From an uncultured Gemmatimonadales bacterium (GTDB lineage: Bacteria > Gemmatimonadota > Gemmatimonadetes > Gemmatimonadales > Gemmatimonadaceae), in contig CAWKNZ010000002.1 of NCBI GenBank assembly GCA_963851265.1, positions 1,728,001-1,792,000 on the forward strand: a stretch of 64,000 nt of DNA, read 5' to 3'. The translations under genes and the position numbers were made by a program. The notes beneath the pieces are model-generated. The model saw only the letters and a program-made list of their open reading frames with translations. It ran no database searches and was not told the origin of the DNA. The stretch's first letter is position 1. Every line of letters begins with the position of its first letter. This document shows positions 816-64,000 of this stretch, piece by piece.

Positions 816-2060
816 GTGTCGTTCCTCGAAGCCGTCCGCCTCGCGCTCCAGCAGATCCGCGTTCAGAAGCTGAAGAGCTTCTTCACGACGCTCGGCGTGC
901 TGATCGGCGTCATGTTCCTCATCGCCGTCATCTCCATCGTGCAGGGGATGACCAACTACATGGAGAACGACTTCGCCGGGAAGCTCATCGGCGGCAACAC
1001 GTTCACCGTGCGGCGCTTCCCACAGAACAACGTCGGCAACGTGACCGAGGCGATGTGGCGCGCGTGGCAGCGCCGCCCGCGTCTGACGCTCGTCGACGTC
1101 GACGTGCTCCGTACCGCCCTGCCGGCGGGCACGCGGACGGCGATCGACAGCGAGAACCTCGTCTACGCCTCCACGCTCTACGCCCGCCCGCGCCAGGTGT
1201 TCGCCGTCGCCACGGACGGCGACTACTTCCGCATCAAGAAGTACGACATGTCGAACGGGCGCGCGTTCACGGCGCAGGAGGCGCAGCTCGGCCTGCCCGT
1301 GATCGTCATCGGCGACGAGGTGCGGGAGCGCATGTTCCCGGGCATCGACCCGATCGGGCGCGCGCTCAAGATCAACGGCATTCCCTACACCGTCGTGGGC
1401 GTGGTCGAGAAGCAGGGCTCGGTGTTCGGCTTCTCGCTCGACCGGCTCGCCGTGGCGCCGTTCCGGTCGCCGCTCTCGCGCCTCACCAACCCGCGCGCCG
1501 ACGTGGACGGCCTCATCGTCAGCGCCCCGTCGCGCGAGGCGCTGAGCGACCTGGAGGAGCAGGCGCGCGAGATCCTGCGCAGCCGGCGGCGGCTCGCGCC
1601 CACGCAGCCCGACAACTTCGAGTTCGAGACGTCGGAGTCTGCGCTCTCGTTCTTCAACGGGATCAAGAGCAAGATGTACGTGTTCGGCGCCGCACTCCCC
1701 GCGATCGGCCTCATCGTGGGCTCGCTCGTGATCATGAACATCATGCTCGTCGCGGTGGCGGAGCGCACGCGCGAGATCGGCGTCCGCAAGGCGTTAGGCG
1801 CGCGGCGCCGCGACATCATGAGCCAGTTCCTGGTCGAGGCGGCGATGCTCTCCCTGCTCGGCGCGGCGGTCGGCATCGCGCTCGGGCTCGTCGGCGCCAA
1901 GCTCCTCTCGCTCGCCTTCCCGTTCCTCCCGGCGGGCATCGCGCCGTGGTCCATCGGCGTCGCACTCGTGATGGGCGCGGGCGTGGGGATCGTCGCCGGC
2001 GCCTACCCGGCGAGCCGCGCGTCGCGCCTCGACCCGATCGCCGCGCTCCGCGCCGACTGA
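816..2060 (+). CDS. ABC transporter permease (MacB/FtsX family)
   Basis: N-terminal TM, large periplasmic domain, IMNIMLVAVAERTREIGVRKALGA, C-terminal PASRASRLDPIAALR. Confidence 0.92.
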   Translation: MSFLEAVRLALQQIRVQKLKSFFTTLGVLIGVMFLIAVISIVQGMTNYMENDFAGKLIGGNTFTVRRFPQNNVGNVTEAMWRAWQRRPRLTLVDVDVLRTALPAGTRTAIDSENLVYASTLYARPRQVFAVATDGDYFRIKKYDMSNGRAFTAQEAQLGLPVIVIGDEVRERMFPGIDPIGRALKINGIPYTVVGVVEKQGSVFGFSLDRLAVAPFRSPLSRLTNPRADVDGLIVSAPSREALSDLEEQAREILRSRRRLAPTQPDNFEFETSESALSFFNGIKSKMYVFGAALPAIGLIVGSLVIMNIMLVAVAERTREIGVRKALGARRRDIMSQFLVEAAMLSLLGAAVGIALGLVGAKLLSLAFPFLPAGIAPWSIGVALVMGAGVGIVAGAYPASRASRLDPIAALRAD

Positions 2061-2078
2061 CGGCGAGCCACCACGTCC

Positions 2079-3347
2079 ATGCGACTCGTCGACCGCATCG
2101 TCCAACTGTTCGAAGGCGTCGTGATCGCCCTCGAAGCCATCCGCGCCAACCGCGTGCGCGCCGCGCTCACCATCGCGGGCGTCGCGATCGGCGTGTTCGT
2201 CGTCGTCGCGATGTCGGCCGCGGTGCACGGCATCACGACCAGCTTTCAGAGCGACGTCAACGACCTCGGCGCCACGACCTTCCAGGTCAGCCGGCGCGTC
2301 ACCATCGGGCCGAGCGCGTGCGACGGCTCGGACGAGGCGTGCCCCGACCGAAAGAACCCGGCCCTGAGCCCCGACGAGGCCGTCGCGATCCGCCGTCTGC
2401 CGAGCGTCGCCGCCGTGGTCGAGATGCTCGGCGGCCAGAACGCATTCAGCTACCGCGACAAGAACCTGTCGAGCGTGGGCTTCGACGCGATGAGCGCGGA
2501 CTGGCTCGAGACCGACGCCAGCGACGTCGGCCCCGGCCGTAGCTTCACCGCGCAGGAGGCCGCGTCGGGCGCGCGCGTCGCGGTGATCAACGACTCGCTC
2601 AAGGTGCGCCTCTTCGGCGAGTCCGACCCGATTGGGAAGGTGTTCACGATCGGCAACCAGCAGTTCTCCGTGGTCGGCGTCTACCACCCCAAGGGCGGGT
2701 TCCTCAAGTCGCTCGGCGGCCGCGGGCCGGACAACCCGCGCGCGGTGATCCCCATCGAGTCGTTCCGCCGCAACTTCGACTACTGGCGGCGCGGTCTTTG
2801 GCTCGTCGTCAAACCGCGGGAAGGCGTGTCGCAGGCGGACGCGATGGACGAGGTCACCGCGCTCCTGCGTGCGCGCCGCGGCCTGAGGCCGACGCAGCCC
2901 AACAACTTCGGCCTGATCACGCAGGACCGCCTCACCGAGACGTTCGACAAGCTCTTCGGCACGCTGTTCGTGATCGGGATCGCGCTGTCCGCGGTCGGAC
3001 TGCTCGTCGGCGGCGTGGGCGTGGTCGCGATCATGATGATCTCCGTCACCGAGCGCACGCGCGAGATCGGCGTGCGCAAGGCGCTCGGCGCGACGCGCGC
3101 GACGATCCTCTTCCAGTTCCTCGTGGAGGCGGCGACGTTGACGAGCATCGGCGCGGGAATCGGCCTCGTCCTCGGCGCCGGCGCCGCGTGGCTCATCCGG
3201 GCCAACTCGTCGGTGCCCGCCTCCGTGCCGGCGTCCGCGGTGGTCAGCGCGCTCGTCGCCAGCGCGCTCACGGGCGTGCTGTTCGGGATGCTCCCGGCCG
3301 TGCGCGCGTCCCGGCTCGACCCGGTCGAGGCACTCCGCTACGAGTGA
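2079..3347 (+). CDS. ABC transporter permease (MacB/FtsX family), paralog of the preceding gene
   Basis: IMMISVTERTREIGVRKALGA, PAVRASRLDPVEALRYE. Confidence 0.92.
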   Translation: MRLVDRIVQLFEGVVIALEAIRANRVRAALTIAGVAIGVFVVVAMSAAVHGITTSFQSDVNDLGATTFQVSRRVTIGPSACDGSDEACPDRKNPALSPDEAVAIRRLPSVAAVVEMLGGQNAFSYRDKNLSSVGFDAMSADWLETDASDVGPGRSFTAQEAASGARVAVINDSLKVRLFGESDPIGKVFTIGNQQFSVVGVYHPKGGFLKSLGGRGPDNPRAVIPIESFRRNFDYWRRGLWLVVKPREGVSQADAMDEVTALLRARRGLRPTQPNNFGLITQDRLTETFDKLFGTLFVIGIALSAVGLLVGGVGVVAIMMISVTERTREIGVRKALGATRATILFQFLVEAATLTSIGAGIGLVLGAGAAWLIRANSSVPASVPASAVVSALVASALTGVLFGMLPAVRASRLDPVEALRYE

Positions 3348-4504: not shown

Positions 4505-5211
4505 TGGAGGAGGCGGGACGCTCGGGCGCGCCGGTCACGTACGGCTCGTACCTCGCCCTCGACGACCTGCTCGCGTTGCAGCGTCCGCGGTCGGCCGAGG
4601 GCGGCGCAGAGCACCCGGACGAGCTGCTGTTCATCGTCGTGCACCAGACGAGCGAGCTGTGGTTCAAGGTGATCCTGCACGAACTGGCCGGGTTGGCGGC
4701 GGCGATGCGCGGCGCCCCCGGGACGCCCGGCGATGCCGGCCTCGCCCTCTGGCGCGCGACGCGCGTCAACTCGCTCACCCGCATCGTCTCGACGCAGCTG
4801 TCGTCGCTCGACACGCTGCCACCCCAACGATTCCTGCAGTTCCGGGGCTACCTCGGCTCGTCGAGCGGTGCGCAGAGCGCGCAGTTCCGCGCCATCGAGC
4901 AGCGCTCCACGGAGCTCGAGCCCGCGTTCCTCGCACTACTCGGGGCGGGCGCGACGACTGTCGAGGCGCTCTACACGGGCCCCGGCCCGGGCACGCTGTT
5001 CTTCGTCGCGGAGGCGCTGCTCGAGTACGAGCAGCAGTTCGCGCGGTGGCGGTTCCAGCACGTCCAACTCGTCGAACGGATCATCGGGCCCGCGACGCAG
5101 GGCACCGGCGGCTCGTTAGGCGCGTCGCACCTCATGCGCACCGTCGCGCAGCGGTTCTTCCCGGTGCTGTGGGAGGCCCGCACGCGGCTCTACCGCGGCG
5201 GCGCAGGGTGA
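4504..5211 (+). CDS. kynA: Tryptophan 2,3-dioxygenase family protein (short form)
   Basis: YGSYLALDDLL, HPDELLFIVVHQTSELWFK, SGAQSAQFRAIE, WRFQHVQLVERIIG, GTGGS; start overlaps the bshB1 stop. Confidence 0.8.
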   Translation: MEEAGRSGAPVTYGSYLALDDLLALQRPRSAEGGAEHPDELLFIVVHQTSELWFKVILHELAGLAAAMRGAPGTPGDAGLALWRATRVNSLTRIVSTQLSSLDTLPPQRFLQFRGYLGSSSGAQSAQFRAIEQRSTELEPAFLALLGAGATTVEALYTGPGPGTLFFVAEALLEYEQQFARWRFQHVQLVERIIGPATQGTGGSLGASHLMRTVAQRFFPVLWEARTRLYRGGAG

Positions 5212-5882
5212 CCGGCGATGACCGCGGCGACGCGCGAGGCCGGATCATCGACGTGAGTGTGCGCGTCGCGGCGGGCACGCCCGAGTGGCCGGGCGACACG
5301 CCCTACGCCTGCGGCTGGACCGCGCGGCTCGCGGACGGCGCGACCGTCAATCTGTCGGCGATCACGCTCAGCCCGCACGTGGGCACGCACGCCGACGCGC
5401 CGCTGCACGTGCGCGACGGCTGGCCGGGATCCGACGCGCTGCCGCCCCACGCGTTCCTCGGGCCCGCGCTCGTCCTCGACCTCGCGATGTTGGACGGCGA
5501 ACTGTCGTACGACGCAGTCGCCGCGGCCGCGCGTACGGCCCGCACCGACCTCGGGGGCACCGAACGCCTGCTGCTGAGCACGGGGCGCACGATCGCGAGC
5601 GGCCGATTCCCCGCCGCGTGGCCGTGGCTCGCGCCCGCGTGCGTCGCCCGCCTGTGCGCCGACGGGCTCGTGCTGTTAGGCGTCGACGCGCCGAGCGTGG
5701 ACGGCCGCGAGAGCAAGGATCTGGCGACGCACCACGCGCTGTTCGGCGCGGGCGCGTGGAACTTGGAGAACCTCGACCTGCGTGCCGTCGCGCCCGGACG
5801 TTACGAGTTGGTCGCGCTGCCGCTCTCGCTCGACGGGCTGGACGCGGCGCCCGCGCGCGCCGTGCTCCGCCCCTTGAGCTGA
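5208..5882 (+). CDS. kynB: Cyclase family / kynurenine formamidase
   Basis: WPGD, HVGTHADAPLH, LGVDAPSVD, ENLDL, YELVALPL; GTGA overlap with the TDO stop. Confidence 0.82.
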   Translation: MTGDDRGDARGRIIDVSVRVAAGTPEWPGDTPYACGWTARLADGATVNLSAITLSPHVGTHADAPLHVRDGWPGSDALPPHAFLGPALVLDLAMLDGELSYDAVAAAARTARTDLGGTERLLLSTGRTIASGRFPAAWPWLAPACVARLCADGLVLLGVDAPSVDGRESKDLATHHALFGAGAWNLENLDLRAVAPGRYELVALPLSLDGLDAAPARAVLRPLS

Positions 5883-9556: not shown

Positions 9557-10693
9557 TCAGAACTTCAGATCCGCGGCCTCCGCGAATTCGCGCATCTTCG
9601 CCTGCTGCTCCTCCGTGAGCCCCTCGGGCACCGTCACGCGCAACTCGACGATCATGTCGCCGCGCTGCTCGCCCTTGACGATCCCCTGCCCCCGCACCCG
9701 GAGCCGCCGTCCACTCGACGTTCCGGCCGGAATCCGCAGCGCGACCTTGGTCCCGTCGAGCGTCCGCACCTGCATCTTCGAACCCAGGGTTGCCTGCGCC
9801 AGGTTCACCGGAATCGTCGCGATGACGTCCAGCCCCTCGCGCCGGAACAACCGGTCCGGCTGAACCTGGAAGGTGATCACGAGGTCGCCCGGCGGCGCGC
9901 CCTGCTCGCCCCGCCCGCCCTGCCCCTTGAGCCGCACGCGTGAGCCCGAGTCCGCGCCCGCCGGCACCGTCACGTTCACCTGCTTGCGCGTGCGCACCTG
10001 CCCCGCCCCGCTGCACGTCGGACAGCGCTCGCTCGGGATCTGCCCGCGCCCCAGGCACATCGGGCACGGACGGTTCACGGCGAACCCGCCCTGGCCGAAC
10101 GAGATCGTGCCGCGCCCGCTGCACTCCGGGCACGTCTTCAGCGTCGCGCCCGGCGCCGCGCCGCTGCCGTGGCACGTCTCGCACTCCTCGCTCACCTCGA
10201 GTTCGACGGGCAGCTTCCCGCCTAACGCCGCCGTGCGGAACGGCACCTCGACGGTGATCTCGACCGTCTGACCGGGCTCGGGGCCGCGCCTCGCGCCGGC
10301 GCCGCCCGCGCGGTTGGCGCCGAAGATCGAACTGAAGATGTCGCCGAAGCCGCCCATCCCCCCGACGTCGACGTTCGAGAAGTCGAACTGCGCGCCGCCC
10401 GGGAATCCCTGCGCACCGCCGGGGCGGGCGCCCGCCGGACCGCGGCCGCCCGCGCCGAAGCCGCCGAACGCGCCCAGCCGGCGCATCTCGTCGTACTGCT
10501 TCCGCTTATCCGCGTCCCCGATGACGTTGTACGCCTCCGAAATCTCCTTGAAGCGCTCCGCGGCCTTCGGGTCGTTCTTGTTCGCGTCCGGGTGGTGCTG
10601 CTTCGCCAGCCGGCGGTACTGCTTTTTTATGTCAGCCTGCTCGGCCGTGGGCGACACGCCGAGCACCGCGTAGTAGTCGCTGTTCTGCGCCAT
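9557..10693 (-). CDS. dnaJ: Chaperone DnaJ
   Basis: J domain with HPD, G/F-rich linker, four CxxCxGxG repeats, C-terminal domain. Confidence 0.95.
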   Translation of the reverse strand: MAQNSDYYAVLGVSPTAEQADIKKQYRRLAKQHHPDANKNDPKAAERFKEISEAYNVIGDADKRKQYDEMRRLGAFGGFGAGGRGPAGARPGGAQGFPGGAQFDFSNVDVGGMGGFGDIFSSIFGANRAGGAGARRGPEPGQTVEITVEVPFRTAALGGKLPVELEVSEECETCHGSGAAPGATLKTCPECSGRGTISFGQGGFAVNRPCPMCLGRGQIPSERCPTCSGAGQVRTRKQVNVTVPAGADSGSRVRLKGQGGRGEQGAPPGDLVITFQVQPDRLFRREGLDVIATIPVNLAQATLGSKMQVRTLDGTKVALRIPAGTSSGRRLRVRGQGIVKGEQRGDMIVELRVTVPEGLTEEQQAKMREFAEAADLKF

Positions 10694-14181: not shown

Positions 14182-14883
14182 TCAGGCCGTGCCGGACGCG
14201 GGATTCCGCCGCAACACGGCGCCGTAGCGCCGCGCGTAGATCCAGAGCGAGTAGAGCGTGAGCGCGACCGCGATCGCCATCGTCGCCGCGCCCACGACGC
14301 CGTTGAACAGCGCGAACGCGTGCCACCACGCGCCCGCCGCCCACGTGCGCCCCTCCGCGAGTGAGGCGGCGAAGAACCAGAAGTAGGCGGCGCCCACCCA
14401 CGTCGCCTGGAACCCCGTCTTCCACTTTGCCGGGCCGATCGCGGCGATCACGACGCCGCGTCGCGCGGCGACCTGGCGGAACGCGGTCATCAGCGCCTCG
14501 CGGCCGAGCACGACGAGCACGACCCACCAGGGGAGCGTCACGAGGCCTAACGGCGTCACGAACGGCAGCGGCGGGCGCGCCGCGGCGTCGGCGGGAATGA
14601 CGAGCGACCCGACGCGGCCCATGAGCCAGTACATCGGGACGAACGTCGCGACGAGCAGCAGCTTGTCGGCGAGCGGGTCGAGCAGGCGGCCGAGGTCGGT
14701 GACCAGGTTGCGCGTGCGCGCGAGGTGGCCGTCCCAGTAGTCGGTGACGGCGGCCGCGACGTAAAGCAGGAACGCGGCGAGCCGCGTGCCCGGCGTCGGT
14801 GCGAACGGCAACCACGCGATGAGCGGCGCGACCGCGATGCGGGCGACGGTGATCGCGTTCGGGAGGTTCACGGAGCGGGGCAC
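14182..14883 (-). CDS. pgsA: CDP-diacylglycerol--glycerol-3-phosphate 3-phosphatidyltransferase
   Basis: NLPNAIT.ARI, TDYWDGHLAR...TDLGRLLDPLADK, AKWKT. Confidence 0.9.
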   Translation of the reverse strand: MPRSVNLPNAITVARIAVAPLIAWLPFAPTPGTRLAAFLLYVAAAVTDYWDGHLARTRNLVTDLGRLLDPLADKLLLVATFVPMYWLMGRVGSLVIPADAAARPPLPFVTPLGLVTLPWWVVLVVLGREALMTAFRQVAARRGVVIAAIGPAKWKTGFQATWVGAAYFWFFAASLAEGRTWAAGAWWHAFALFNGVVGAATMAIAVALTLYSLWIYARRYGAVLRRNPASGTA

Positions 14884-15620: not shown

Positions 15621-15644
15621 GGGCGTTCTCCGGATGGGTGTGCG

Positions 15645-16223
15645 TTAGGAGAAGAGCCGGTCGATCTCGTCTTCGGCGCCGGCGAGCAGGTCTGTGAGGA
15701 AGGCCGGCAGCGGCGCGGCCGGCGGGCCGGCGGGCGTCGCCCCGGCCGGCGGTGCGGGGTTGGGCGTGGCGTTGGGCGCGGCTCCGGGCGCCACGTTAGG
15801 CCCCGGCGAGCGTTCGAACACGCGCTCGAAGCGCGCGGCGAGCGTGTCGACGACGCCGCGCAGCTTGAGGCGCACGAGGCCGAGCGTGGTCCGGTTGTCG
15901 AAGAGGACGACGAGGATCACGCGGCGCGCGACGTCGGCCAGGTACATCGACTCGCGCTCGCCCTGGTGGAAGAGCGTCGTGAAGTCGCGCTCGCCGATCA
16001 GCCGCGCGAGCTGGTCGTTGGCGCTGAAGTCGGCCGCCGTGAGCGACGCGAACGCGACGGCGTCGAACGCGGGCACCTCGCCCACGGTGGCGACGAGCTG
16101 GCCCGCGCGGTCGACGAGCAGCGCGGAGCGCGCGCCGGTCTCGCGCAGGAAGCTCTGCACGGCCCCGCTGATCGCGTGCGCGTCGTCGTCGGTGAAGGTC
16201 CAGCTAACGGCGCCGGGGGGCAT
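15645..16223 (-). CDS. mglB: Roadblock/LC7 protein MglB
   Basis: ALLVDRAGQL, FASLTAADFSANDQLARLIGE, LFHQGE, VLFDNRTTLGLVRL; directly upstream of mglA. Confidence 0.9.
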   Translation of the reverse strand: MPPGAVSWTFTDDDAHAISGAVQSFLRETGARSALLVDRAGQLVATVGEVPAFDAVAFASLTAADFSANDQLARLIGERDFTTLFHQGERESMYLADVARRVILVVLFDNRTTLGLVRLKLRGVVDTLAARFERVFERSPGPNVAPGAAPNATPNPAPPAGATPAGPPAAPLPAFLTDLLAGAEDEIDRLFS

Positions 16224-17642: not shown

Positions 17643-17781
17643 GGGGGCAACCTAACGGGGTGAGATTGGTGCGACGCGTGGCGCGATGTCCGCCGCGGCC
17701 GCATCGCGCGTCATGCGGGTCCGGCTGTTCGCGGTGTGCCGAGTCGGGCACGTCTGCTCGCGCACGCCTACCGGAGGAACG

Positions 17782-19737
17782 CTACTCGAGCAATTCGAGG
17801 TCGAGCGCTTCGATGGCGGCGCCGAGCACACGGTCGCGACGCGCGAGCGTCGCGAGCCGCTCTGCACGTACCCCTTCGGCGGTCAGGCGTTGCGGCGCCG
17901 CGCCGCCCTGGGGTGCCGCCGCGCCGTTCGCCCGCAGCACGACCCGCGCCGCCCCAGGGTGGACGTGCCGCACGGCGCCGATCACGTCGTCGTGGGCCGC
18001 GGAGAGCGCCTGCGCGTACGCGTCGTTCGGCTCGATCAGTTCGACGGTGACGACGCCCGCCGCACTCAGCGCGACGGGGCGCGTTGCGGCGAGTGCACTC
18101 GCGACGAGCGGTCGCACGGCCCGCGCCGCGTCGACCACCGCGGACCACCGCGCCGCGAGCGTGACGACGTCGCCATGCGCGTCGGCGGGCATCGGCGCAC
18201 CGTTCGGCAGCGGTGCCGGGTAGCTCGGCGTCTGGGGCGCATGCGCCGCGTCGACCAGCGGCGCCGGCGCGACGCTCCGCGTTGGCGCGCGCACCGCGGG
18301 TCGCTCCAGCACCGCCGTAATCGGCCCGTTGCCGATCGGCCCGTCACTGATCGACGCCTCGCTGATCGGACCGTCGGGGTGGTCCGGCAGCGGCGCCTCG
18401 CGGTGCCACGCGGGTGGACGCGCGTCGTCGACGGCGCTCTCGTACGCGGCGCGAAGGCTCGCCCCCGCAGACGGACGCGTCGTCGCGCGCCCCGCGTCGG
18501 CGGGAGGCGTGCGACCGGCAGGCCGGGGGGGCGCCGACGACGGGCCGGTAACCGGGGTGCGAGCGGGACCACTCCCCAGCGGACCGCCGTCGAGGCCGCG
18601 GAGCACGGTTTCGAGGTCGACCGCGCGGTCGGCGAGTGCGAAGCGCACGAGCAGCGTCTCGAGCAGGAGTTGCTGTTGCCCGCTCTTGCGGATGCGCGGC
18701 TCGGCTTCGACGAGGATCTGCAGCATGCGCACGAGGTCCGACGCGCCGAGGTGGCCCGGGCGGCCCGCGCGCTCGGCCAGCGCCGCGCGCAGGCGTTCCG
18801 AGACGTCGGGCGCGTCGCCCCCGAGCGTGAGGGCGAGGAGCGCGCGCATCGCGTCGCCGAGCCCGGCCACGAACAGCGCGAAGTCGACGCCACCTTCGGC
18901 GAGGCGCGCGACCTGGGCGAACACGTCGCCCGCACGCCGGTCGGCGACGAGGTCGACGACGGCGACGTACTCCTCCTCGGGCACGAGGCCTAACGCCTCG
19001 CGCACGCGCTCCGCCGTGACGCGCGCGTCCGCGCCGAGCGAGAGCACCTGGTCGGTGAGCGAGAGCGCGTCGCGCAGGCCGCCGTCCGCCGCGCGCGCGA
19101 TCGCGCCGAGCGCGTCGGGCTCGAACGGCACGTGCTCGGCGTCGAGCACGGCGGCCAGTCGCGCGCGGATCTCGCCGGGCCCGATGCGCTTGAGGTCGAA
19201 GCGCTGGAGCCGGCTGAGAATCGGCGCGGCCGCCTGCGCGATTTTTTGCGGCTCCGTGGTGCAGAAGACGAACACCACGCGAGGCGGCGGCTCCTCGAGC
19301 ACCTTGAGGAGCGCGTTCCACGCCTCGCGCGTGAGCATGTGGGCCTCGTCCACGATGTAGACCTTGTACCGGCCCTCGCCCGACGGGGCGTACATCGCAC
19401 GCTCGCGCAGGTCGCGCGCGTCGTCCACCGAGCGGTTGGACGCGGCATCGATCTCGACGACGTCGAGCGACGAGGCCCCGCTCCAGATGCGCCGGCAGCT
19501 TTCGCACGCCCCGCACGGCTCGCCGTCGGGGTGCTCGGCCCGGCGCTCACAGTTGAGTGCCATCGCGAGTACGCGCGCGAGCGTCGTCTTGCCCGTCCCG
19601 CGCGGCCCGCACAGGAGGTAGCCGTGCGCGACGCGGCCGCGCGCGATGGCCCCCTTCAACGTGTTCGAGACGTGCGACTGGACGGCGACGTCGGCGAACG
19701 ACTTGGGGCGGTACTTCCGGGCGAGGGCGAGCGACAT
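17782..19737 (-). CDS. dnaX: DNA polymerase III subunit gamma/tau
   Basis: LARKYRP, GPRGTGKTT, zinc module, EIDAASN, DEAHML, NALLKVLEEPP. Confidence 0.96.
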   Translation of the reverse strand: MSLALARKYRPKSFADVAVQSHVSNTLKGAIARGRVAHGYLLCGPRGTGKTTLARVLAMALNCERRAEHPDGEPCGACESCRRIWSGASSLDVVEIDAASNRSVDDARDLRERAMYAPSGEGRYKVYIVDEAHMLTREAWNALLKVLEEPPPRVVFVFCTTEPQKIAQAAAPILSRLQRFDLKRIGPGEIRARLAAVLDAEHVPFEPDALGAIARAADGGLRDALSLTDQVLSLGADARVTAERVREALGLVPEEEYVAVVDLVADRRAGDVFAQVARLAEGGVDFALFVAGLGDAMRALLALTLGGDAPDVSERLRAALAERAGRPGHLGASDLVRMLQILVEAEPRIRKSGQQQLLLETLLVRFALADRAVDLETVLRGLDGGPLGSGPARTPVTGPSSAPPRPAGRTPPADAGRATTRPSAGASLRAAYESAVDDARPPAWHREAPLPDHPDGPISEASISDGPIGNGPITAVLERPAVRAPTRSVAPAPLVDAAHAPQTPSYPAPLPNGAPMPADAHGDVVTLAARWSAVVDAARAVRPLVASALAATRPVALSAAGVVTVELIEPNDAYAQALSAAHDDVIGAVRHVHPGAARVVLRANGAAAPQGGAAPQRLTAEGVRAERLATLARRDRVLGAAIEALDLELLE

Positions 19738-19908: not shown

Positions 19909-20910
19909 ATGCGTTGGTTCACGCCGCCCGTCGTCAGATCCCGGCCCGCGTACGCGGTCTCGCGCGCGCTCGCACGCGCGCGCACCGTCGCGCCGGCCAC
20001 GCTCGTGCTGTTCGCGGCCGACGCATGCGACAATCGCGTCGCGGACGCTCCCGGCGTCGGCGGCGTGATCGACCGCCCCGTCGCGGTGCTCGCCGCCTCG
20101 TCGACCGACGTGACGACGACCGAGTTGTACCTCGTCAGCGAGAACGGTGGGACGTCGATCCGGGTCCCCACTTTCACCGGGGCCAAGTGGCAGGTGCGCT
20201 GGTCGGGCGACGGTCGCCGGCTGGCGCTCACCGGGAACACGCTCGACTCGCGCTCCGACCGCGTCGCCTTCACCTCGGACGTGTGGGTAATGAACGCCGA
20301 CGGATCGGGGCTGCGGCAGATCACGCGCGATGGGGTGTCCGGATCGGCCACGTGGCTCGCCGACGGGCGGCTGGTCTACGTCTACGCAGCGCCAAACCAG
20401 GGATTGCAGTGGTTCGCGGTGCCGGCGACGGGCGGGCCAGCCCTACCCCTCACGCTGCGCCAGGGCGCGCCCGTCTACACGCCCGATTGGTCGCGGACGG
20501 CTCCGCAGATGAGCTTCAACGACGACACCACGATCTTCACCGCGGCGGTCGACGGCTCCGCCGAGCGCGCGATCGCCGGCGGGACGCTTCCGCGGTGGTC
20601 GCCGTCGGGCGACCGGATTGCCTACCTGGGACGCCAGGACGGCGGGCCGAAGCTGTTCGTGATCTCGCCCGTCGCGCGGGCGCGTCCCGTGGTCGTCGTG
20701 CCCGACCTCACGGCGTTCGCGGGCGGCTTCACGTGGTCGCCGGACGGCACCCGCATCCTCTGGATCCGGAACACGGCGGCCGGGACGGAGGCGGTGGTCA
20801 GCCAGGCGAACGGATCCGGCGCGCCGACCACGTTCGTCCAGCGCGGGCCTAACGTGACCGCGTACGACGTCGACGTCGACTGGCGTCCGACACCGCTTCC
20901 GGTTCCGTAA
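19909..20910 (+). CDS. TolB-like beta-propeller (PD40 repeat) exported protein
   Basis: Repeated WSGDG/WSPSG/WSPDG motifs, VWVMNADGSGLRQIT; start uncertain. Confidence 0.75.
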   Translation: MRWFTPPVVRSRPAYAVSRALARARTVAPATLVLFAADACDNRVADAPGVGGVIDRPVAVLAASSTDVTTTELYLVSENGGTSIRVPTFTGAKWQVRWSGDGRRLALTGNTLDSRSDRVAFTSDVWVMNADGSGLRQITRDGVSGSATWLADGRLVYVYAAPNQGLQWFAVPATGGPALPLTLRQGAPVYTPDWSRTAPQMSFNDDTTIFTAAVDGSAERAIAGGTLPRWSPSGDRIAYLGRQDGGPKLFVISPVARARPVVVVPDLTAFAGGFTWSPDGTRILWIRNTAAGTEAVVSQANGSGAPTTFVQRGPNVTAYDVDVDWRPTPLPVP

Positions 20911-23137: not shown

Positions 23138-24049
23138 TCAGTCCTCCAGCACCGCGCGCTGGATGCGGCGCACGTGCCGCAACTCGAACACCTGCGCTAC
23201 CTCGCCGCCGAGAATAAAAACGATCGACGCATAATACACCCAGAAGACGATGATCACGAACGCGGCGAGCGTGCCCGTATACAGGGACCCCGGGTTGAAC
23301 GACCGCACGTACGCGGAGAACACCATCTTCGCGACCTCCAGGAGCGCGCCGGCGAACGCCGCCGCGAGGAGTGCCGTCTTCCAGCGAATGCCTCGGTTAG
23401 GCAACGTCTTGTACAGACCGAAGAACATCGCCGTGATGAACGAGAACGCGACGAGGCGCCCGACCGAGTATTCGAGGCCGCCCATCACGTCGCCGCGCAC
23501 GCCCATGTTGATGAGCACGCGCACGCCCGACGACGTCGCGAGGCTGAGGTACGCCGACAGCGCGGTGTAGGCGACGACGAGCACCGTCGAGACCACGGTC
23601 ACCTGGACGTCGAACAGCTTGCCGGCCACGATCCCGCGCTCCTGGTCGATGTCGAACACCTCGGCCAGCACCGAGCGCAGTGACCCGAAGAGCCGCGTCG
23701 AGAACCAGATGAACGACACCGCCGACACGAGCCCGACGCGTCCTCGCGTGCGGATCGCGTCGGCGATCACCGAGCGGAGCAGGTCGGTGCCCGTTCCGAG
23801 GCCGCCGGGGAGCAACCGGTCGAGCAGCGCCGACACCTGCGTCGTGGACGCGTCGGCGGTCTGCCCGAGCACGTACGCGATGCCGGTCACGAGCAGGAGC
23901 GCGAACGGGACCACGGCCAGGAGGATGTTGAACGCGATCCCGCCGGCGAGGAAGAAGATGTCGTCGTCGCCGGAGTTGTCCCACACGCGTCGGACGTAGT
24001 CGCCGAGCGTGCGCCCCGCGCGAACTCGAAGCGGAGGCCGGGCGGTCAG
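23138..24049 (-). CDS. YihY/virulence factor BrkB family membrane protein (start either CTG 24049 or GTG 23986)
   Basis: DDIFFLAGGIAFNILLAVVPF, LYKTLPN, YTGTLA..IIVFWVYYASIVFILGGE; multiple TM segments. Confidence 0.85.
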   Translation of the reverse strand: MTARPPLRVRAGRTLGDYVRRVWDNSGDDDIFFLAGGIAFNILLAVVPFALLLVTGIAYVLGQTADASTTQVSALLDRLLPGGLGTGTDLLRSVIADAIRTRGRVGLVSAVSFIWFSTRLFGSLRSVLAEVFDIDQERGIVAGKLFDVQVTVVSTVLVVAYTALSAYLSLATSSGVRVLINMGVRGDVMGGLEYSVGRLVAFSFITAMFFGLYKTLPNRGIRWKTALLAAAFAGALLEVAKMVFSAYVRSFNPGSLYTGTLAAFVIIVFWVYYASIVFILGGEVAQVFELRHVRRIQRAVLED

Positions 24050-30541: not shown

Positions 30542-30561
30542 GCGCCGGGTCGTCCCGGCCG

Positions 30562-50922: not shown

Positions 50923-50958
50923 GAAAGCGGGGCGGGCGGACGGGTACGGGGCGCCGCG

Positions 50959-52170
50959 TTAGGCGAGAACGCCCGCGGGCGCGAGCGCGCCGAGGACGCG
51001 CGGCCCCCGCGCGCCGGTCGCGCCGGGGACGTTCCCCGGCAGGTGCGCGAGGTGAAGATAGCCGAGCAGCGCGAACGCGACGGCCTCCTTGGCCTCGCCG
51101 TCGAAGAACGCGTCGTCGAAGCGCCGCACGCGGATGGGTAGCCCCGCGCGCGACAACTCCGCCGTGACGGCCGCCACGAGCGCGGGATTCCGGGCGCCCC
51201 CGCCGGAGAGCAGCGTTTCTGCTACGGGCTCCGCGACGAACCGCCGGTACGCGTCGGCGAGCGCCGCGGCGGTGAGCAGGACCGCCGTCGCGACCACGTC
51301 CTCGTCGCGCGCGAGGGGGTCGGCGGCGATGCACGCGGCCCGCAGACGCTCCGCGTACGCCGCGCCGAAGTGCTCGCGCCCCGTGCTCTTGGGCGGCGGT
51401 GCGGCGAAATACGGATCGCGGAGGAGCGCCTCGACGACGGCGCGGTTCGCCGTGCCCGCGGCGGCGAGGCGCCCGTCGACGTCGTAGGGCAGCTCGGGGC
51501 GCGCGGCGCGCACGATCGCGTCGACCACGGCCACCCCGGGCCCGGTGTCGAACGCGCGCACCGCGATCAGGTCGGGGGCGCCGCCGTAGGCGTCACGGGG
51601 CGGGAGCACGGTCACGTTGCCCATCCCGCCCAGATTCTGCAGCAGGCGCCAGTCACCCCCCGCAAACAGCAGCGCGTCGGCCATGGGGACGAGCGGCGCC
51701 CCCTGCCCGCCCGCCGCCACGTCGCGCGTGCGGAAGTCGTACACGACGTCGACTCCGACTCGCTCCGCGAGCACGGCGGCGTCACCGATCTGCCAGGTCG
51801 AATGCCCGGGCTCGTGCCAGATCGTGTGCCCGTGCGACGCGACGGCCCGCACCGACGCGCGCGCGACGCCCGCGTCGGCGAGGAGTGCGGTGGTCGCGTC
51901 GGCGAGCCACCCGCCGACGTCGGCGGCGAGTCGGCAGTAGTCGCGCGCGGTGCCTGCGTCCATCGCGTCAAGGAGGCGCGCGCGCTCCGCCGGCGTGTAC
52001 GCGCGCTGTACGAAGCCGAGCAGCTCGATCCCCGTCGGCACGCCTCCGTCGGTCCCGCGCTCGGACGACGTGAAGCGCACGGCCGCCGCGCTGATGCCGT
52101 CGCACGAGGTGCCCGACATCACTCCGACGTACACGTCGCGGACCGGCGTCGCGGCCCCGGCGTCGCTCAC
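50959..52170 (-). CDS. anmK: Anhydro-N-acetylmuramic acid kinase
   Basis: GVMSGTSCDG, SHGHT, GGQGAPLVP, NLGGMGN, FDTGPG, KSTGRE, KEAVAFA. Confidence 0.93.
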   Translation of the reverse strand: MSDAGAATPVRDVYVGVMSGTSCDGISAAAVRFTSSERGTDGGVPTGIELLGFVQRAYTPAERARLLDAMDAGTARDYCRLAADVGGWLADATTALLADAGVARASVRAVASHGHTIWHEPGHSTWQIGDAAVLAERVGVDVVYDFRTRDVAAGGQGAPLVPMADALLFAGGDWRLLQNLGGMGNVTVLPPRDAYGGAPDLIAVRAFDTGPGVAVVDAIVRAARPELPYDVDGRLAAAGTANRAVVEALLRDPYFAAPPPKSTGREHFGAAYAERLRAACIAADPLARDEDVVATAVLLTAAALADAYRRFVAEPVAETLLSGGGARNPALVAAVTAELSRAGLPIRVRRFDDAFFDGEAKEAVAFALLGYLHLAHLPGNVPGATGARGPRVLGALAPAGVLA

Positions 52171-55027: not shown

Positions 55028-55051
55028 CGCGGCGTTAGGCCGATGCGTCAG
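55024..55051 (+). terminator. Hairpin directly after the ggt stop (no U-tract)
   Basis: CTGACGC...GCGTCAG inverted repeat. Confidence 0.4.
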
Positions 55052-56490: not shown

Positions 56491-58467
56491 GTGACGACCG
56501 CGGACCAGACGCGCGTCCGCGTTCCCGCGACGACGACGCTCCGCCGCCTCGTGCCGTACCTGCGACCCTACGCCGGACGCCTGACCTGGGGCATCGTGCT
56601 CGTGGTCGTGGGAGCCGGGTTCGGCGCGGTGGTGCCGTGGATCGTGCGGGCGGCACTCGACGGCCTCGCGGCGGGCGCGCCGCCGAGTCGCACGTGGACG
56701 CTCGTCGCCGCGATGCTCGCGGCCGCGATCGTCGGCGGCGCGATCCGCTTCGGCATGCGCGAGATCCTCAACGGCGTGAGCCGCCTGGTCGAGACCGACC
56801 TGCGCGACGCGGTGTTCTCGCACCTGCTGACGCTGGACGCGGGCACGGTCGCGCGCTGGCGCACGGGCGAACTCATGGCCCGCCTCACGAACGACCTCAG
56901 CGCGGTGCGCATGGCCGCCGGCCCGGCCATCATGTACCTGGTCAACACGGTCGCGGGCGCGGCGTTCTCGCTGTACTTCATGCTGCGCATCGACGCCCGG
57001 CTCACGGGGCTCGCCCTCCTGCCGATGGTCGGGCTGCCGTTCGTGATGATCCGGCTCGGCCGGCTCGTCCACGACCGGTTCGAGGCGGTGCAGGAGCACT
57101 TCGGCGCGCTCACGACGCGCGTGCAGGAGAACCTCGCCGGCACGCGCGTCGTGCGCGCGTACCGGCAGGAGCGCGCCGAGGGCGAGCGGTTCGAGCGCGA
57201 CAACGCGGAGTACGCGCGGCGCAACATCGCGCTCGCCCGACTGAACGGGGTGATGAACCCCGCCTTCGGCCTGCTCGCCGGCGCCGGTGCCGCCGTCGTG
57301 CTCGGCGTCGGCGGCACGCTGGCGCTGCGCGGCACGATCACGGTGGGCGCGTTCGTCGCGTTCGGCCTGTATCTCGCGATGCTCACGTGGCCGCTCATCG
57401 CGCTCGGCTGGACGACGAACCTGTTCCAGCGCGGTGCGGCCAGCATGGCGCGCATCAACGAGGTGCTCGACGCCGCGCCGACGCTCGACCAGCCGGCCCG
57501 CCCGCGCGCGCTGCCCCCCGCCGCGACCGGGCGCGGGCTCGAGTTCCGCAACGTCTCGTTCCACTACCCGCGCGCGGCCGGCGCGGACGCGGACGGCACG
57601 CCCACGCGCTGGATCCTGCGCGACGTGTCGTTCACCGTGCCCGCGGGGGCGACGTTCGGGATCGTCGGGCCGGTGGGGTCGGGCAAGAGCACGCTGCTCG
57701 ACCTCGTACCGCGCCTCTACGACCCGCAGCGCGGCGAGGTGCTGCTCGACGGCGTGCCGATCCGCGAGCTCACGCTCGACGCGCTCCGGCGCGAGATCGG
57801 CGTCGTGCCGCAGGAGAGCCTGCTCTTCTCCGAGACGATCCGGGCCAACATCCGCTACGGCACGGACGACAGCACCGACCGCACCACCGCGGCGCCCGCC
57901 GGCGCGCGCGACCTCACGCCTAACGAGGGCGGGGTCGCGCCGCGGCTCGAGGAGGCCGCCTCCGGCGCGACCGAGCCCACGGCGCACGACCTCGTCGTCT
58001 GGGCCGCGGACATCGCCGACCTCACCGGCACGGTCACCGACTTCCCCGGCGGCTTCGACACGCTGCTCGGCGAGCGCGGTGTCAACCTCTCGGGCGGGCA
58101 GAAGCAGCGCGCCGCGATCGCGCGCGCGCTCGCCCGACGACCAGCCGTGGTGCTGCTCGACGACGCGCTCTCAGCCGTCGACACGCAGACCGAGGCCGCC
58201 ATCCTGCGCGGGCTGCGCACCGCGCTCGCGGGGCGGACCACCCTCATCACCACGCACCGCGTGAGCGCCGTCCGCGACGCGGCGTGGATCCTCGTGCTCG
58301 ACGAGGGCCGCGTGGTCGAGCAGGGCACGCACGACGTGCTGCTCGCGCGCGGCGGCCGTTATGCCGCGCTCGCGCGCCGTCAGCAGCTCGAGGCGGAGGT
58401 CGAGGACGCCGACGGGAGCGGCGACGACGGCGCACGCGCCGTGGCCGGCGCGGGCGCGACGGCGTAG
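56491..58467 (+). CDS. ABC exporter, fused permease/ATPase (MdlA-like)
   Basis: TM domain, GELMARLTND, GPVGSGKS, LSGGQKQR, LLDDALSAVD. Confidence 0.9.
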   Translation: MTTADQTRVRVPATTTLRRLVPYLRPYAGRLTWGIVLVVVGAGFGAVVPWIVRAALDGLAAGAPPSRTWTLVAAMLAAAIVGGAIRFGMREILNGVSRLVETDLRDAVFSHLLTLDAGTVARWRTGELMARLTNDLSAVRMAAGPAIMYLVNTVAGAAFSLYFMLRIDARLTGLALLPMVGLPFVMIRLGRLVHDRFEAVQEHFGALTTRVQENLAGTRVVRAYRQERAEGERFERDNAEYARRNIALARLNGVMNPAFGLLAGAGAAVVLGVGGTLALRGTITVGAFVAFGLYLAMLTWPLIALGWTTNLFQRGAASMARINEVLDAAPTLDQPARPRALPPAATGRGLEFRNVSFHYPRAAGADADGTPTRWILRDVSFTVPAGATFGIVGPVGSGKSTLLDLVPRLYDPQRGEVLLDGVPIRELTLDALRREIGVVPQESLLFSETIRANIRYGTDDSTDRTTAAPAGARDLTPNEGGVAPRLEEAASGATEPTAHDLVVWAADIADLTGTVTDFPGGFDTLLGERGVNLSGGQKQRAAIARALARRPAVVLLDDALSAVDTQTEAAILRGLRTALAGRTTLITTHRVSAVRDAAWILVLDEGRVVEQGTHDVLLARGGRYAALARRQQLEAEVEDADGSGDDGARAVAGAGATA

Positions 58468-59412: not shown

Positions 59413-59786
59413 CCGCACGCCGCCCCGCGGTGCTCATCGTCGACGACAGTCCGCTCGTCACCGACGCGTTAGGCGTGCTCCTCGAAGCGAGTGGCTACGC
59501 GACCGGGACCGCGACCACCGTGGCCGACGCGATCACCGCGCTCCGCAACGAGCGCTACGACGCGATGCTCCTCGACCTCACGCTCCCCGACGGCGACGGA
59601 CTCGAGGTGCTGGGGAGCGCGGAGGACGCCGACGTCACGCCCCCGCCGACGCTCGCCCTCACCGGCCACGACGACCCCGCCACGGCCGCGCGCTGCCGCG
59701 AAGCAGGGTGCGTCGCGGTGCTCGTCAAGCCGGTCCGGCGCATCGCCCTGCTCGGCGCACTGCAGGCGGCCGGCGTCGCGCCCTGA
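59409..59786 (+). CDS. Single-domain response regulator
   Basis: LIVDD, LDLTLPDGDG, LTG, KP; GTGA overlap with the kinase. Confidence 0.87.
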   Translation: MTARRPAVLIVDDSPLVTDALGVLLEASGYATGTATTVADAITALRNERYDAMLLDLTLPDGDGLEVLGSAEDADVTPPPTLALTGHDDPATAARCREAGCVAVLVKPVRRIALLGALQAAGVAP

Positions 59787-59801: not shown

Positions 59802-60530
59802 CTACAAGCGCGCCCGCACGGCGTCCGGCGTCCACGCCTGAAGCGACGCGCCGAGGCGCGACACGGTACCGGTCAGCATCAGCACGCCGACCAGCACCAG
59901 CAGCGCCCCCGAGAGTCGCGTGACCAGGCCGAGCCGCGCGCGCAGACGCCCGAACACGGCGAGGAAGCGCTCCAGGGCCACGGCCGCGAGTACGAACGGA
60001 ATCGCGAGCCCGAGCGAGTAGGCGAGCAGGAGCAGCACGCCGCGCCCGAGGTCCGGCGACGCGAGGTTGTACGTGAGCACCGCGCCGAGCACCGGCCCGA
60101 TACACGGGGTCCATCCCGCGCCGAACGCGACGCCGACGAGCAGCGTGCCGAAGTAGCCGGCGGGCTTGTCGGCGAGGTGCACGCGGCGTTCCCGCAGCAG
60201 CGCCCCCGGCGTGAACGCGCCGAGCAGGAACAGGCCGAGCAGCACAACGAGCGCGCCGCCGGCGCGCGCGATCACGTCGCGGTAGGCGGCGAGCAGCCGG
60301 CCTAACGTGGTCGCGCCCGCGCCGAGCGCGACGAAGATGAGCGAGAAGCCGGCGACGAAGAGCAGCGCGTGCACGAGCGCCGCGCGCCGCGAACGTCCCA
60401 GGTCGTCGAGCGTGAGTCCCGTGATGAACGTGACGTAGCTCGGTACGAGCGGCAGCACGCACGGCGACAAGAAGCTGAGCAGCCCGGCGCCGAACGCGAC
60501 GGCGAGGCCCACCGGAGGGATCGAGACCAC
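59802..60530 (-). CDS. ccdA: Cytochrome c biogenesis protein CcdA
   Basis: AGLLSFLSPCVLPLVP, GWTPCIGP, YSLGL; six TM segments. Confidence 0.9.
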   Translation of the reverse strand: MVSIPPVGLAVAFGAGLLSFLSPCVLPLVPSYVTFITGLTLDDLGRSRRAALVHALLFVAGFSLIFVALGAGATTLGRLLAAYRDVIARAGGALVVLLGLFLLGAFTPGALLRERRVHLADKPAGYFGTLLVGVAFGAGWTPCIGPVLGAVLTYNLASPDLGRGVLLLLAYSLGLAIPFVLAAVALERFLAVFGRLRARLGLVTRLSGALLVLVGVLMLTGTVSRLGASLQAWTPDAVRARL

Positions 60531-60535
60531 GCGCG

Positions 60536-62014: not shown

Positions 62015-62023
62015 TGCAGGCAG

Positions 62024-62085
62024 GACGATCGCGCATGAAATGGCGACGATCTGGCGCAGACCGTCCCAATCGCAGAACGTAACTT
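62024..62085 (+). promoter_or_regulatory. Candidate AraC tandem sites and -10 box for the NmrA-like gene
   Basis: GACGATC at 62024 and 62045 (21-bp period); TAACTT at 62080-62085. Confidence 0.5.
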
Positions 62086-62141
62086 CGTCGACGTTCCGGC
62101 GCGCCCGCGCGCCTCCACCACATCGGCTACCGGTCTCGCCC

Positions 62142-63056: not shown

Positions 63057-63068
63057 CGAGCCGCGCCC

Positions 63069-64000
63069 TCACATCAGCGCGACGGGATCGCGGTCGATCG
63101 CCACCCGCAGCCCGTCGCGCTTCGGCACCTCGAAGCGCGCGGCGAAGTAGCGCAGCGCGCGCGTCATCGCGCCCGCGTCTCCGGTGCGCACGAGGAAGTG
63201 CCAGCGCCAGCGCGTCTTGATCCGCTCGACGGGGCACGGCGCGGGCCCCACGACGACCACCCGCCCGGCCGCGTCGGCGTCCGGCGCGAGCCGCGCCGCG
63301 AGCGCGCGCAGCCAGTCCGCCGCGCGGTCCGCACACTCCGCGACCGGCTTCTCGGACGTGCCGCTCACGACCACGTTCGCCAGTCGCACCGTCGGCGGGT
63401 ACGGCGGATCGCGCCGCCCGCCGAGCTCCTCGCGGACGAAGCTCGCGTAGTCGTGCGCGAGCGCGTAGCGAACCGCGTGGTGGTCGGGCACGCGCGTCTG
63501 GATGAGCACCTCGCCGCCTTTCGGCCCGCGACCCGCGCGCCCGGCCACCTGGCTCAGCAGCTGGAAGCAGCGCTCGGACGCGCGGAAGTCCGGCAGGTTG
63601 ATCCCCGTGTCGGCATCGATCACGCCGACGAGCGTGACGTTCGGGAAGTCGAGCCCCTTGGCGATCATCTGAGTGCCTAACAACACGTCGACCTCGCCCC
63701 GCCCCACCCGGTCGAGGATTTCGGCGTGCGCCCACTTCGCGCTGGTCGTGTCGACGTCCATGCGCGCCACGCGCGCCGCCGGCCAGCGCTCGGCCAGCAG
63801 CCGCTCCACCTGCTGCGTGCCGAGCCCGCGCTGACGTAGCGTGGCCCCGCCACAGCGCGCGCACCGCTCGCGCGGCGGCTCGTGGTGCTGGCAGTAGTGG
63901 CAGACCAGGCGCTCGGGCGCGCGGTGGTAGGTGAGCGAGATGCTGCAGTCCGGGCACGTCGCCACGTCCCCGCACTCCTTGCACTGCACGAACGCCGAAT
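63069..64000 (-). CDS. priA: Primosomal protein N' (3' part; 5' end outside the window)
   Basis: Cys-rich region, GLGTQQVE, RMDVD, GTQMIAKGLDFPNV, QVAGRAGR, YPP, IDRDP. Confidence 0.95.
   Translation of the reverse strand, partial: SAFVQCKECGDVATCPDCSISLTYHRAPERLVCHYCQHHEPPRERCARCGGATLRQRGLGTQQVERLLAERWPAARVARMDVDTTSAKWAHAEILDRVGRGEVDVLLGTQMIAKGLDFPNVTLVGVIDADTGINLPDFRASERCFQLLSQVAGRAGRGPKGGEVLIQTRVPDHHAVRYALAHDYASFVREELGGRRDPPYPPTVRLANVVVSGTSEKPVAECADRAADWLRALAARLAPDADAAGRVVVVGPAPCPVERIKTRWRWHFLVRTGDAGAMTRALRYFAARFEVPKRDGLRVAIDRDPVALM

Follow-up and report, generated by a model that had tools for sequence, protein, structure and literature searches.

GTTAGGC, a seven-base word enriched throughout a Gemmatimonadaceae genome and its lineage, behaves most like a DNA uptake sequence

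The stretch of DNA analysed here (the window) comprises 64,000 bases, C2:1728001-1792000, from the genome of an uncultured Gemmatimonadales bacterium (G000; 4,601,510 bases in 12 contigs, 72.6 to 74.4% GC), and one short word, GTTAGGC, recurs throughout its genes. A codon-usage caller placed 3,792 genes in G000, about 89% of the sequence being coding. We found 27 copies of GTTAGG in the window (11 on the + strand, 16 on the - strand), 24 of them the full GTTAGGC; 100 dinucleotide-preserving shuffles gave 4.87 ± 2.06 copies of the hexamer and 1.99 ± 1.34 of the heptamer, with a largest value of 5 for the latter. Seventeen of the 27 copies encode Leu-Gly (16 TTA-GGC and one TTA-GGA), five encode Pro-Asn (CCT-AAC), three supply a TAA stop and two are intergenic. 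The preceding base was C in 22/27 copies, T in 4/27 and G in 1/27. The three stops end the genes for pyruvate kinase, AnmK and a Roadblock/LC7 (MglB-like) protein. An independent recount and independent gene calls thus returned the same totals, strand split and class breakdown as the initial annotation, which had also described the copies as nearly all preceded by a pyrimidine and had placed the three TAA stops in mglB, pyk and anmK. The copies are as follows, each GTTAGGC unless a variant is named.

1793..1799, + strand: sense, GCG-TTA-GGC (Ala-Leu-Gly), gene 816-2060 (+)
5115..5121, + strand: sense, TCG-TTA-GGC, gene 4504-5211 (+)
5675..5681, + strand: preceded by T; sense, CTG-TTA-GGC, gene 5208-5882 (+)
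10220..10226, - strand: sense, GCG-TTA-GGC, gene 9557-10693 (-)
14545..14551, - strand: sense, CCG-TTA-GGC, gene 14182-14883 (-)
15644..15649, + strand: variant GTTAGGA; read on the complement as the TCC-TAA stop of the Roadblock/LC7 (MglB-like) gene 15645-16223 (-)
15795..15801, + strand: antisense, CCT-AAC (Pro-Asn), gene 15645-16223 (-)
17651..17656, - strand: variant GTTAGGT; intergenic
18988..18994, - strand: sense, GCG-TTA-GGC, gene 17782-19737 (-); specific to G000, CTC-GGC in G004 and G001
20847..20853, - strand: antisense, CCT-AAC, gene 19909-20910 (+)
23396..23402, + strand: preceded by G; antisense, CCT-AAC, gene 23138-23986 (-)
28849..28855, - strand: sense, TCG-TTA-GGC, gene 28342-29718 (-)
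29488..29494, - strand: preceded by T; sense, CTG-TTA-GGC, gene 28342-29718 (-)
30017..30023, - strand: sense, CCG-TTA-GGC, gene 29753-30541 (-)
30561..30567, + strand: complement gives the GCC-TAA stop of the pyruvate kinase gene 30562-32016 (-)
33226..33231, - strand: variant GTTAGGA; sense, TTG-TTA-GGA, gene 32544-35111 (-)
33453..33459, + strand: antisense, CCT-AAC, gene 32544-35111 (-)
34620..34626, - strand: sense, GCG-TTA-GGC, gene 32544-35111 (-)
34848..34854, - strand: sense, GCG-TTA-GGC, gene 32544-35111 (-); specific to G000, CTC-GGC in G004 and G001
42127..42133, - strand: sense, CCG-TTA-GGC, gene 39727-42594 (-)
43345..43351, - strand: sense, GCG-TTA-GGC, gene 42928-45513 (-)
50958..50964, + strand: complement gives the GCC-TAA stop of the AnmK gene 50959-52170 (-)
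55034..55040, + strand: intergenic
57918..57924, - strand: antisense, CCT-AAC, gene 56491-58467 (+)
59468..59474, + strand: sense, GCG-TTA-GGC, gene 59430-59786 (+)
60300..60306, - strand: sense, ACG-TTA-GGC, gene 59802-60530 (-)
63675..63681, - strand: preceded by T; sense, TTG-TTA-GGC, - strand gene running off the window end

The word in the whole genome

Across G000 we counted 1,762 copies of GTTAGGC, 885 on one strand and 877 on the other. It was the strongest 7-mer outlier under Markov models of orders 1, 2 and 3, with observed-to-expected ratios (O/E) of 11.0, 18.3 and 13.9, and between 19 and 64 copies were expected when the word was masked from the background. The strongest 8-mer outlier was CGTTAGGC (1,396 copies); TGTTAGGC occurred 243 times. 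Genes held 1,289 copies compared to 73.4 ± 6.5 (largest, 85) in 20 within-gene synonymous-codon shuffles, an excess of about 18-fold obtained with the inflated TTA and CCT counts retained, and spacers held 277 compared to 12 to 24 expected, an 11 to 22-fold excess. Of the 1,304 TTA codons in the genome, GGC follows 999 and G precedes 1,189.

The consensus of the word is Y-GTTAGGC-V, mostly CGTTAGGC. When the copies were sorted by reading, 990 (56%) fell into sense xxG-TTA-GGC, 281 (16%) were intergenic, 200 were antisense CCT-AAC, 192 overlapped gene ends, 75 were antisense CTA-AC and 24 were sense GTT-AGG. The base before the word (position -1) was C in 74-92% and T in 4-17% of copies, a preference that recurred in all six classes, spacers included. 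The base after it (position +7) followed the order G>A>C; T was scarce there, at about 5%, except among the 24 GTT-AGG copies, where it reached 17%. No flank conservation was found beyond these two positions in the G000 copies. The word supplies stop codons in both directions, as GCC-TAA-C in 126/452 TAA stops and as xGT-TAG-GC in 83/765 TAG stops. Since the flank preferences are alike in every frame and in spacers, the enrichment is a DNA-level signal and not a codon-pair habit.

From the window, the initial annotation had proposed a genome-wide signal acting at the DNA level, TTA codons concentrated in the G-TTA-GG context and a motif with no described function. Each of these proposals was borne out: the enrichment is similar in genes and spacers, GTTAGGC is in excess over both codon-preserving and Markov null models and tops the 7-mers under the latter, the copies extend over 4.6 Mb and into the wider lineage, and among the matches listed in a literature search we found no paper describing GTTAGGC as a genomic word or giving it a function. 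Codon usage, a TTA excess outside this context, restriction to the window and sequencing error all fail to account for the counts.

Placement, orientation and spacing

We found that the share of available places filled by the word differed between readings. Places that could encode Leu-Gly as xxG-TTA-GGC were filled in 989 of 10,894 cases (9.1%), Pro-Asn places (xxG-CCT-AAC) in 200 of 1,464 (13.7%) and places with a C-terminal Ala and stop (GCC-TAA) in 131 of 872 (15%). Occupancy was 3.9% for xGC-CTA-ACx (74/1,908) and 0.7% for GTT-AGG-C, which requires two rare codons (24/3,478). Occupancy therefore tracks translational cost, and the orientations are used alike once coding limits are allowed for. 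Spacers differed in density by type: convergent ones held 1.16 copies per kb, co-directional ones 0.58 and divergent ones 0.34, compared to 0.38 genome-wide. The word was also denser in GC-rich DNA (Spearman +0.38 with local GC over 456 windows of 10 kb), which is the opposite of what composition only would predict because the word bears A+T. Similarly, Leu-Gly occupancy was 2.7% in the lowest quintile of gene GC at third codon positions (GC3) and climbed to 12.9% in the highest, and most of the long stretches free of the word fall in DNA of lower GC3, such as C2:1.02-1.17 Mb.

Most genes on C2 lie on the - strand up to about 0.8 Mb, on the + strand from there to about 1.35 Mb and again on the - strand beyond it, and these switches are likely to be the origin and terminus of replication; an Xer-like recombinase gene lies near the second switch, at C2:1346667-1347503. 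In the part of C2 where replication direction could be read from gene orientation, the leading strand holds 218/319 copies. Genes on the leading strand contain 173 sense and 31 antisense copies, and genes on the lagging strand 37 sense and 15 antisense copies. Sense-strand preference and gene orientation by themselves account for the leading-strand excess, and the orientation of genic copies follows the gene and not replication. Intergenic copies between co-directional genes ran with the gene direction in 82 cases and against it in 81, so that no polarity was seen beyond gene orientation.

The copies are spaced more evenly than chance, with close pairs and long gaps both scarce. We compared the gaps with 300 random placements of the same copy numbers over protein-compatible places, gene ends and spacer bases. 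Gaps under 200 bp numbered 46, compared to 135.7 ± 10.8 in the simulations (lowest, 103), and gaps under 500 bp numbered 193 compared to 313.6 ± 15.5. Gaps of 0.5 to 3 kb were in excess (1,049 compared to 885 ± 19), and gaps of 5 kb or more were too few (211 compared to 256 ± 9). The deficit of close pairs excludes independent site-by-site mutation as the source of the copies. The unit on which the benefit or drive acts is a stretch of DNA at least about half a kilobase long.

Turnover and distribution among relatives

The window could be aligned to two species of the same genus, G004 (55,107 bases, 84.8% identity) and G001 (54,522 bases, 83.9% identity). Copies of the word were kept at 13/21 aligned places in G004 and 12/20 in G001, about twice as well as control 7-mers of the same phase, which were fully kept in 31% and 29% of cases, respectively. 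In the aligned part each of the two genomes carries 31 copies, of which only 13 and 12 are common to the window. Places without the word in the orthologues mostly read CTC-GGC, two or three changes away, and the intermediates seem to be short-lived under strong GC pressure. Both G004 and G001 lack the word at 18988 and 34848, and G009 lacks it at 18988; these two copies look like gains on the G000 lineage. All 21 one-letter neighbours of the word occurred at an O/E of 0.97 to 2.9 against a masked order-3 background, none being depleted.

All 5 genomes of the G000 genus are enriched. Among 31 relatives we found further enrichment in G012 (6,360 copies), G008, G017, G018 and G030, the last belonging to another family, and most of the other relatives have 3 to 60 copies. 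In the family, a hand count over 151 genomes, with enrichment taken as 400 copies or more and a count no lower than twice that of the reversed-word control, gave 46 enriched genomes in 24 of 68 genera; G011, G047 and G093 were non-enriched in these tallies. An RpoB tree of 27 of the 31 relatives (G002, G008, G013 and G014 lacked a usable RpoB and were left out) placed the enriched genomes in at least three separate groups, with at least three changes of state. The comparison across the lineage thus extends the word well beyond the genome in which it was first noticed. Furthermore, a cultured species, Gemmatirosa kalamazoonensis KBS708, carries 39 copies in the first 50 kb of its 1.1-Mb plasmid compared to 1.5 expected.

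The top 8-mer in samples of G008, G012 and genus g52 is the same as in G000, so that at least three groups share one 8-mer with small dialects, yet many close relatives are without the word. In g52 and G012 the last base is T in 17-19% of copies, and g52 shows a preference for T two bases upstream. In G030 we found a second, related word, CCGTTATG (252 copies compared to 28 of the reversed control), which was not raised in the four genomes examined for it (G020, G024, G009 and G012). In rpoB, where protein-compatible places are very few, one place is common to genus g1 and G012 and one to G030 and G012. Two further over-represented 7-mers were seen in these samples. GGTGCTG was the top 7-mer of an 80-kb sample of G030 (89 compared to 27 expected), and GTAGTAG was moderately over-represented in the non-enriched G006 (15 compared to 1.2 expected) and G029 (9 compared to 0.6), which belong to different families; this second excess may reflect Tyr-Tyr codon pairs.

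A candidate uptake tag and the competing explanations

Taken together, the finding is real and strong, and the word behaves most like a DNA uptake sequence. Only two families, both proteobacterial, are to our knowledge firmly established as tagging self DNA by sequence. The DNA uptake sequences (DUS) of Neisseriaceae, which are read by the minor pilin ComP, and the uptake signal sequences (USS) of Pasteurellaceae, together the DNA uptake enhancing sequences (DUES), are likewise short exact words present in thousands of copies per genome. GTTAGGC shares with them a density of about one copy per 0.8 to 2.6 kb, use of both strands without replication polarity, a preference for the cheapest reading frames with enrichment at gene ends, spacing more even than chance, mildly raised one-letter variants and, perhaps, lineage specificity with small dialects. 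It differs from them in phylum and in the word itself, which is made of the rarest codons of a 73% GC genome and coincides in spelling with the integron core site.

We tentatively regard GTTAGGC as a candidate DUS/USS-like tag, with uptake as its presumed reading step and a presumed reader protein. A sequence-specific DNA-binding protein would read the word, and the genome would accumulate it wherever it is tolerated. During natural transformation, pieces of DNA that bear the word would be preferentially bound and imported and would then recombine into the chromosome; owing to this preferential import and recombination, new copies could spread through the population by molecular drive. Translation cost and strong GC pressure would purge copies where they are harmful. 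G000 has a full set of competence-type genes: those for ComEC, ComEA-like HHH_3 proteins and DprA, together with two secretins and seven type IV pilin-like proteins.

A number of observations weigh against an uptake tag. ComEC and ComEA-like proteins were found in 31/31 relatives, enriched or not, and an orphan minor pilin of G000 (G000:C7:452369-452890) has orthologues in 29/31, again irrespective of enrichment. Since competence genes are also present in non-enriched relatives, they permit uptake as the reading step and do not support it. None of the seven pilin-like proteins of G000 matched a DUS-receptor family at E <= 0.01. Among the matches listed in the literature search, we found no report of natural transformation in Gemmatimonadota, and the search returned no paper linking this phylum with uptake sequences. 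According to the available text of one source, about half of DUS/USS copies lie in terminators (bioRxiv 10.1101/2025.10.24.684340); here, only 6 inverted pairs within 30 bp were found and only 16% of copies are intergenic, so that terminator-type use was not seen, though convergent spacers are enriched 3-fold. The distribution is also patchier than that of DUS/USS, even within one genus: in genus g53, G061 has about 3,900 copies and G151 about 4,100, and G114 has only 66, a difference of about 60-fold. In addition, no alternative word of comparable strength appeared in samples of four non-enriched genomes (80 kb of G006, 60 kb each of G015 and G029, and 20 kb of G009). Finally, the rise of occupancy with GC3 fits recombination-linked drive and fits residence time or expression level equally well.

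We considered several proteins of G000 as the reader. The presence of ComEC, of the orphan minor pilin and of the HHH_3/ComEA-like proteins does not track enrichment, and these candidates were rejected. Of the 31 relatives, only the four larger genomes in genus g1 have an extra small HHH_3 (ComEA-like) protein, G000:C3:101258-101431; being confined to that genus and not common to the other carriers, it was rejected as well.

Were an uptake tag to be correct, this would be a third independent case, and self tags would be shown to be a general evolutionary outcome. The lineage concerned lies in an abundant, little-studied soil phylum, it pays for the word with its rarest codons, and the word would provide a handle on gene flow within Gemmatimonadaceae. 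The patchiness (about 4,000 compared to 66 copies in one genus) offers a natural experiment in which the reader could be sought by gene content, and direct tests are possible because a cultured and harmless carrier, G. kalamazoonensis KBS708, exists.

An unlikely alternative, though one to be taken seriously, is that the word forms an array of binding sites for a chromosomal protein, either a nucleoid organiser or the reader of a "self" mark in a defence or maintenance system without need of orientation, selection keeping one copy every few kilobases. Even spacing with few close pairs and few long gaps, the lack of polarity, conservation above background and the higher density in high-GC, presumably native DNA (Spearman 0.38) would all suit such an array, as would the similar density on the G. 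kalamazoonensis plasmid (39 copies in 50 kb). However, no candidate protein is known, and the site-specific nucleoid proteins of which we are aware have sites numbering in the tens rather than in the thousands, and they leave codon usage untouched. Promoter-side spacers are the least dense, so that a regulatory role is unlikely. Furthermore, about half of the copies differ between congeneric species, which drive explains more easily than selection on each site.

The spelling of the word raises a connection to integrons that the initial annotation had not noted. GTTAGGC fits the R-box consensus of attC sites, for which the accessible part of PMC12901181 gives R' as GTTRRRY and R'' as RYYYAAC with the crossover after the first G (G|TT), and a random 7-mer fits GTTRRRY with a chance of about 0.2%. 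In G021, G019 and G029, which are not enriched, almost every copy belongs to an R''/R' pair of an attC site in a cassette array, and the few copies in non-enriched relatives cluster on single contigs with a spacing of about 550 bp. G000 itself has small arrays at C6:1-3,500 and C10:193-206 kb, and their foldable attC sites contain the word, preceded by C or T. One of these loci, L076 (G000:C10:186001-206000), is an integrase-less cassette array with many genes of 60-150 amino acids on one strand and foldable attC sites between them, for example at C10:194558-194654, 202950-203046 and 203674-203792. The match in spelling, which includes the preceding C/T, may be more than chance.

One way to join these observations to uptake, which we consider rather improbable, is that the word serves as a tag for DNA import and has been given the spelling of the integron crossover core, the chromosomal copies marking self DNA for homologous repair and possibly serving as attG-type pads. 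A receptor preferring (C)GTTAGGC would import cassette arrays better than other DNA, because these carry two copies per cassette (about 3 to 4 per kb) compared to 0.4 to 1.3 per kb in carrier genomes. In Vibrio cholerae, natural transformation feeds cassette recruitment, and there the link has so far been shown only for the entry of single-stranded DNA (PMC12614218). If this combination holds, natural transformation would be coupled directly to gene-cassette capture, which bears on the spread of cassettes in soil.

Slightly less probable again is that the word is read by the integron integrase or a related tyrosine recombinase, the copies being attG- or attI-like landing pads or decoys. Integrases can insert at isolated double-stranded genome sites (attG) with a minimal GWT core, as far as the available text of bioRxiv 10.1101/2022.09.11.507474 describes them, and this lends such a role some appeal in addition to the attC spelling. 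However, the presence of integrase does not track enrichment. An integrase above the family cut-off was found in 18/31 relatives, enriched and non-enriched alike; it also occurs in two genomes without enrichment, G114 (3 matches) and G009, and in two with enrichment, G061 and G151. Only fragments were found in G001 and G012, and nothing integron-specific was found in G008, G018 or the 78%-complete G002, the best E of about 1e-26 in G008 and G018 being at the Xer-like level seen in every genome. Candidate paired sites number 9 among the 1,762 copies of G000, about 5 of them attC-like, so at most about 1% of copies; more than 98% are isolated 7 to 9-mers without the paired, foldable architecture of attC, and unlike attC sites they sit in housekeeping genes as synonymous codons. 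Landing pads within genes would be harmful, and the second word of G030, CCGTTATG, violates GTTRRRY. We also considered the copies as insertion footprints, each TTAGGC being an extra Leu-Gly that an excised cassette had left; this was rejected because the alignments at orthologous places are gap-free and Leu-Gly is encoded there with or without the word.

The only intI of G000 (L075:3005-6044, on C6) is split at about model position 262 by an insertion of about 2 kb that encodes a large serine recombinase (Resolvase, Recombinase and Zn_ribbon_recom), and an attC site adjoins the split gene at C6:1592-1708. This interruption, like the fragmentary or missing integrases of other carriers, tells against the integrase as the reader.

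A by-product of methylation-linked or mismatch-repair bias, in which near-matches are converted to the word, appears very improbable. Its model would be HIP1 (GCGATCGC) of cyanobacteria or the Vsr/Dcm type of repair. HIP1 is palindromic and tied to cognate methyltransferases. Like GTTAGGC, it is a hyper-abundant octamer in coding DNA that uses many frames and is patchy among relatives. The presence of the word in all frames and in spacers would agree with such a bias, and the patchiness within genera would suit a mobile methylase or repair gene. However, 0/21 one-letter neighbours are depleted, close copies repel each other as independent conversion of sites would not make them do, and turning CTC-GGC into TTA-GGC takes two changes away from G+C. 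Vsr was found in 0/6 genomes searched (G000, G012, G061, G151, G114 and G009) and a C5 methylase in 0/4 enriched genomes searched (G000, G004, G012 and G061). Among the genomes searched, C5 methylase genes were seen only in the non-enriched G114. 5-Methylcytosine is poorly detected when DNA is sequenced by the single-molecule real-time (SMRT) method. The SMRT methylome of G. kalamazoonensis contains only RGATCY, ATGCAC and CCAGN7TCA, and GTTAGGC is absent from it (PMC3974934). Unlike HIP1, therefore, the word is asymmetric, its carriers lacked C5 methylase and Vsr where these were sought, and it is not among the methylated motifs of the cultured carrier.

A polar signal of the Chi or KOPS (FtsK orienting polar sequences) type, serving a helicase-nuclease or a DNA translocase, is essentially refuted. 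Such signals, including the SpoIIIE recognition sequences (SRS) related to KOPS, resemble the word as over-represented oligomers of 5 to 8 bases along the chromosome that are commoner in native DNA. The density of Chi in E. coli is comparable to the word's about 1 per 5 kb per orientation, 218/319 copies lie on the leading strand in the readable part of C2, and G000 has an AddAB-like gene pair. However, Chi and KOPS/SRS are strongly polar with respect to replication and GTTAGGC is not: gene orientation and sense preference alone give the leading-strand excess, and intergenic copies run 82 with and 81 against the gene direction. RecC was found in only 19/151 family genomes and in none of genus g1 or in G012. 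Among five strongly enriched genomes searched for PDDEXK_1 nucleases, none was found in G004, G012, G061 or G151, and G001 gave one weak match, so that Chi readers were not found in most carriers searched. With the AddB-like protein of G000 as the query, no match was found in congeners at E <= 1e-20. RecC and this AddB-like protein were also considered as readers of the word, and neither tracks enrichment. The interpretation given in the initial annotation therefore stands in part: its DNA-level, genome-wide signal is supported and extends across the lineage, its argument against Chi and KOPS agrees with the lack of polarity and the scarcity of RecC and PDDEXK_1, and its methylation or repair option is not supported, given the absence of Vsr and C5 methylase in the enriched genomes searched, the undepleted neighbours and the methylome.

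The AddAB-like helicase-nuclease pair lies at L095 (G000:C3:243001-253000), where the reading frame of the AddB-like part seems to be broken or split, near L095:6942-6947. The AddB-like part of G000 is probably accessory, because it was not found in three congeners at E <= 1e-20.

The weakest alternative, to which we give practically no credence, is that there is no DNA-level signal but only a translational habit of placing TTA before GGC, as the 56% of copies in frame xxG-TTA-GGC might suggest; it is refuted by flank preferences identical across classes and by the enrichment in spacers (11 to 22-fold) and over codon shuffles, and it sits poorly with the use of antisense CCT-AAC, CTA-AC and both stop readings and with the presence in G000 of all tRNAs required for the word's rare codons.

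In a separate ranking of G000 7-mers under a maximal-order Markov model, words ending in GCT or starting with AGC came out on top, among them AGGCGCT (1,025 compared to 496 expected), AAGCGCT (320 compared to 118) and AGCCGCT (696 compared to 352).

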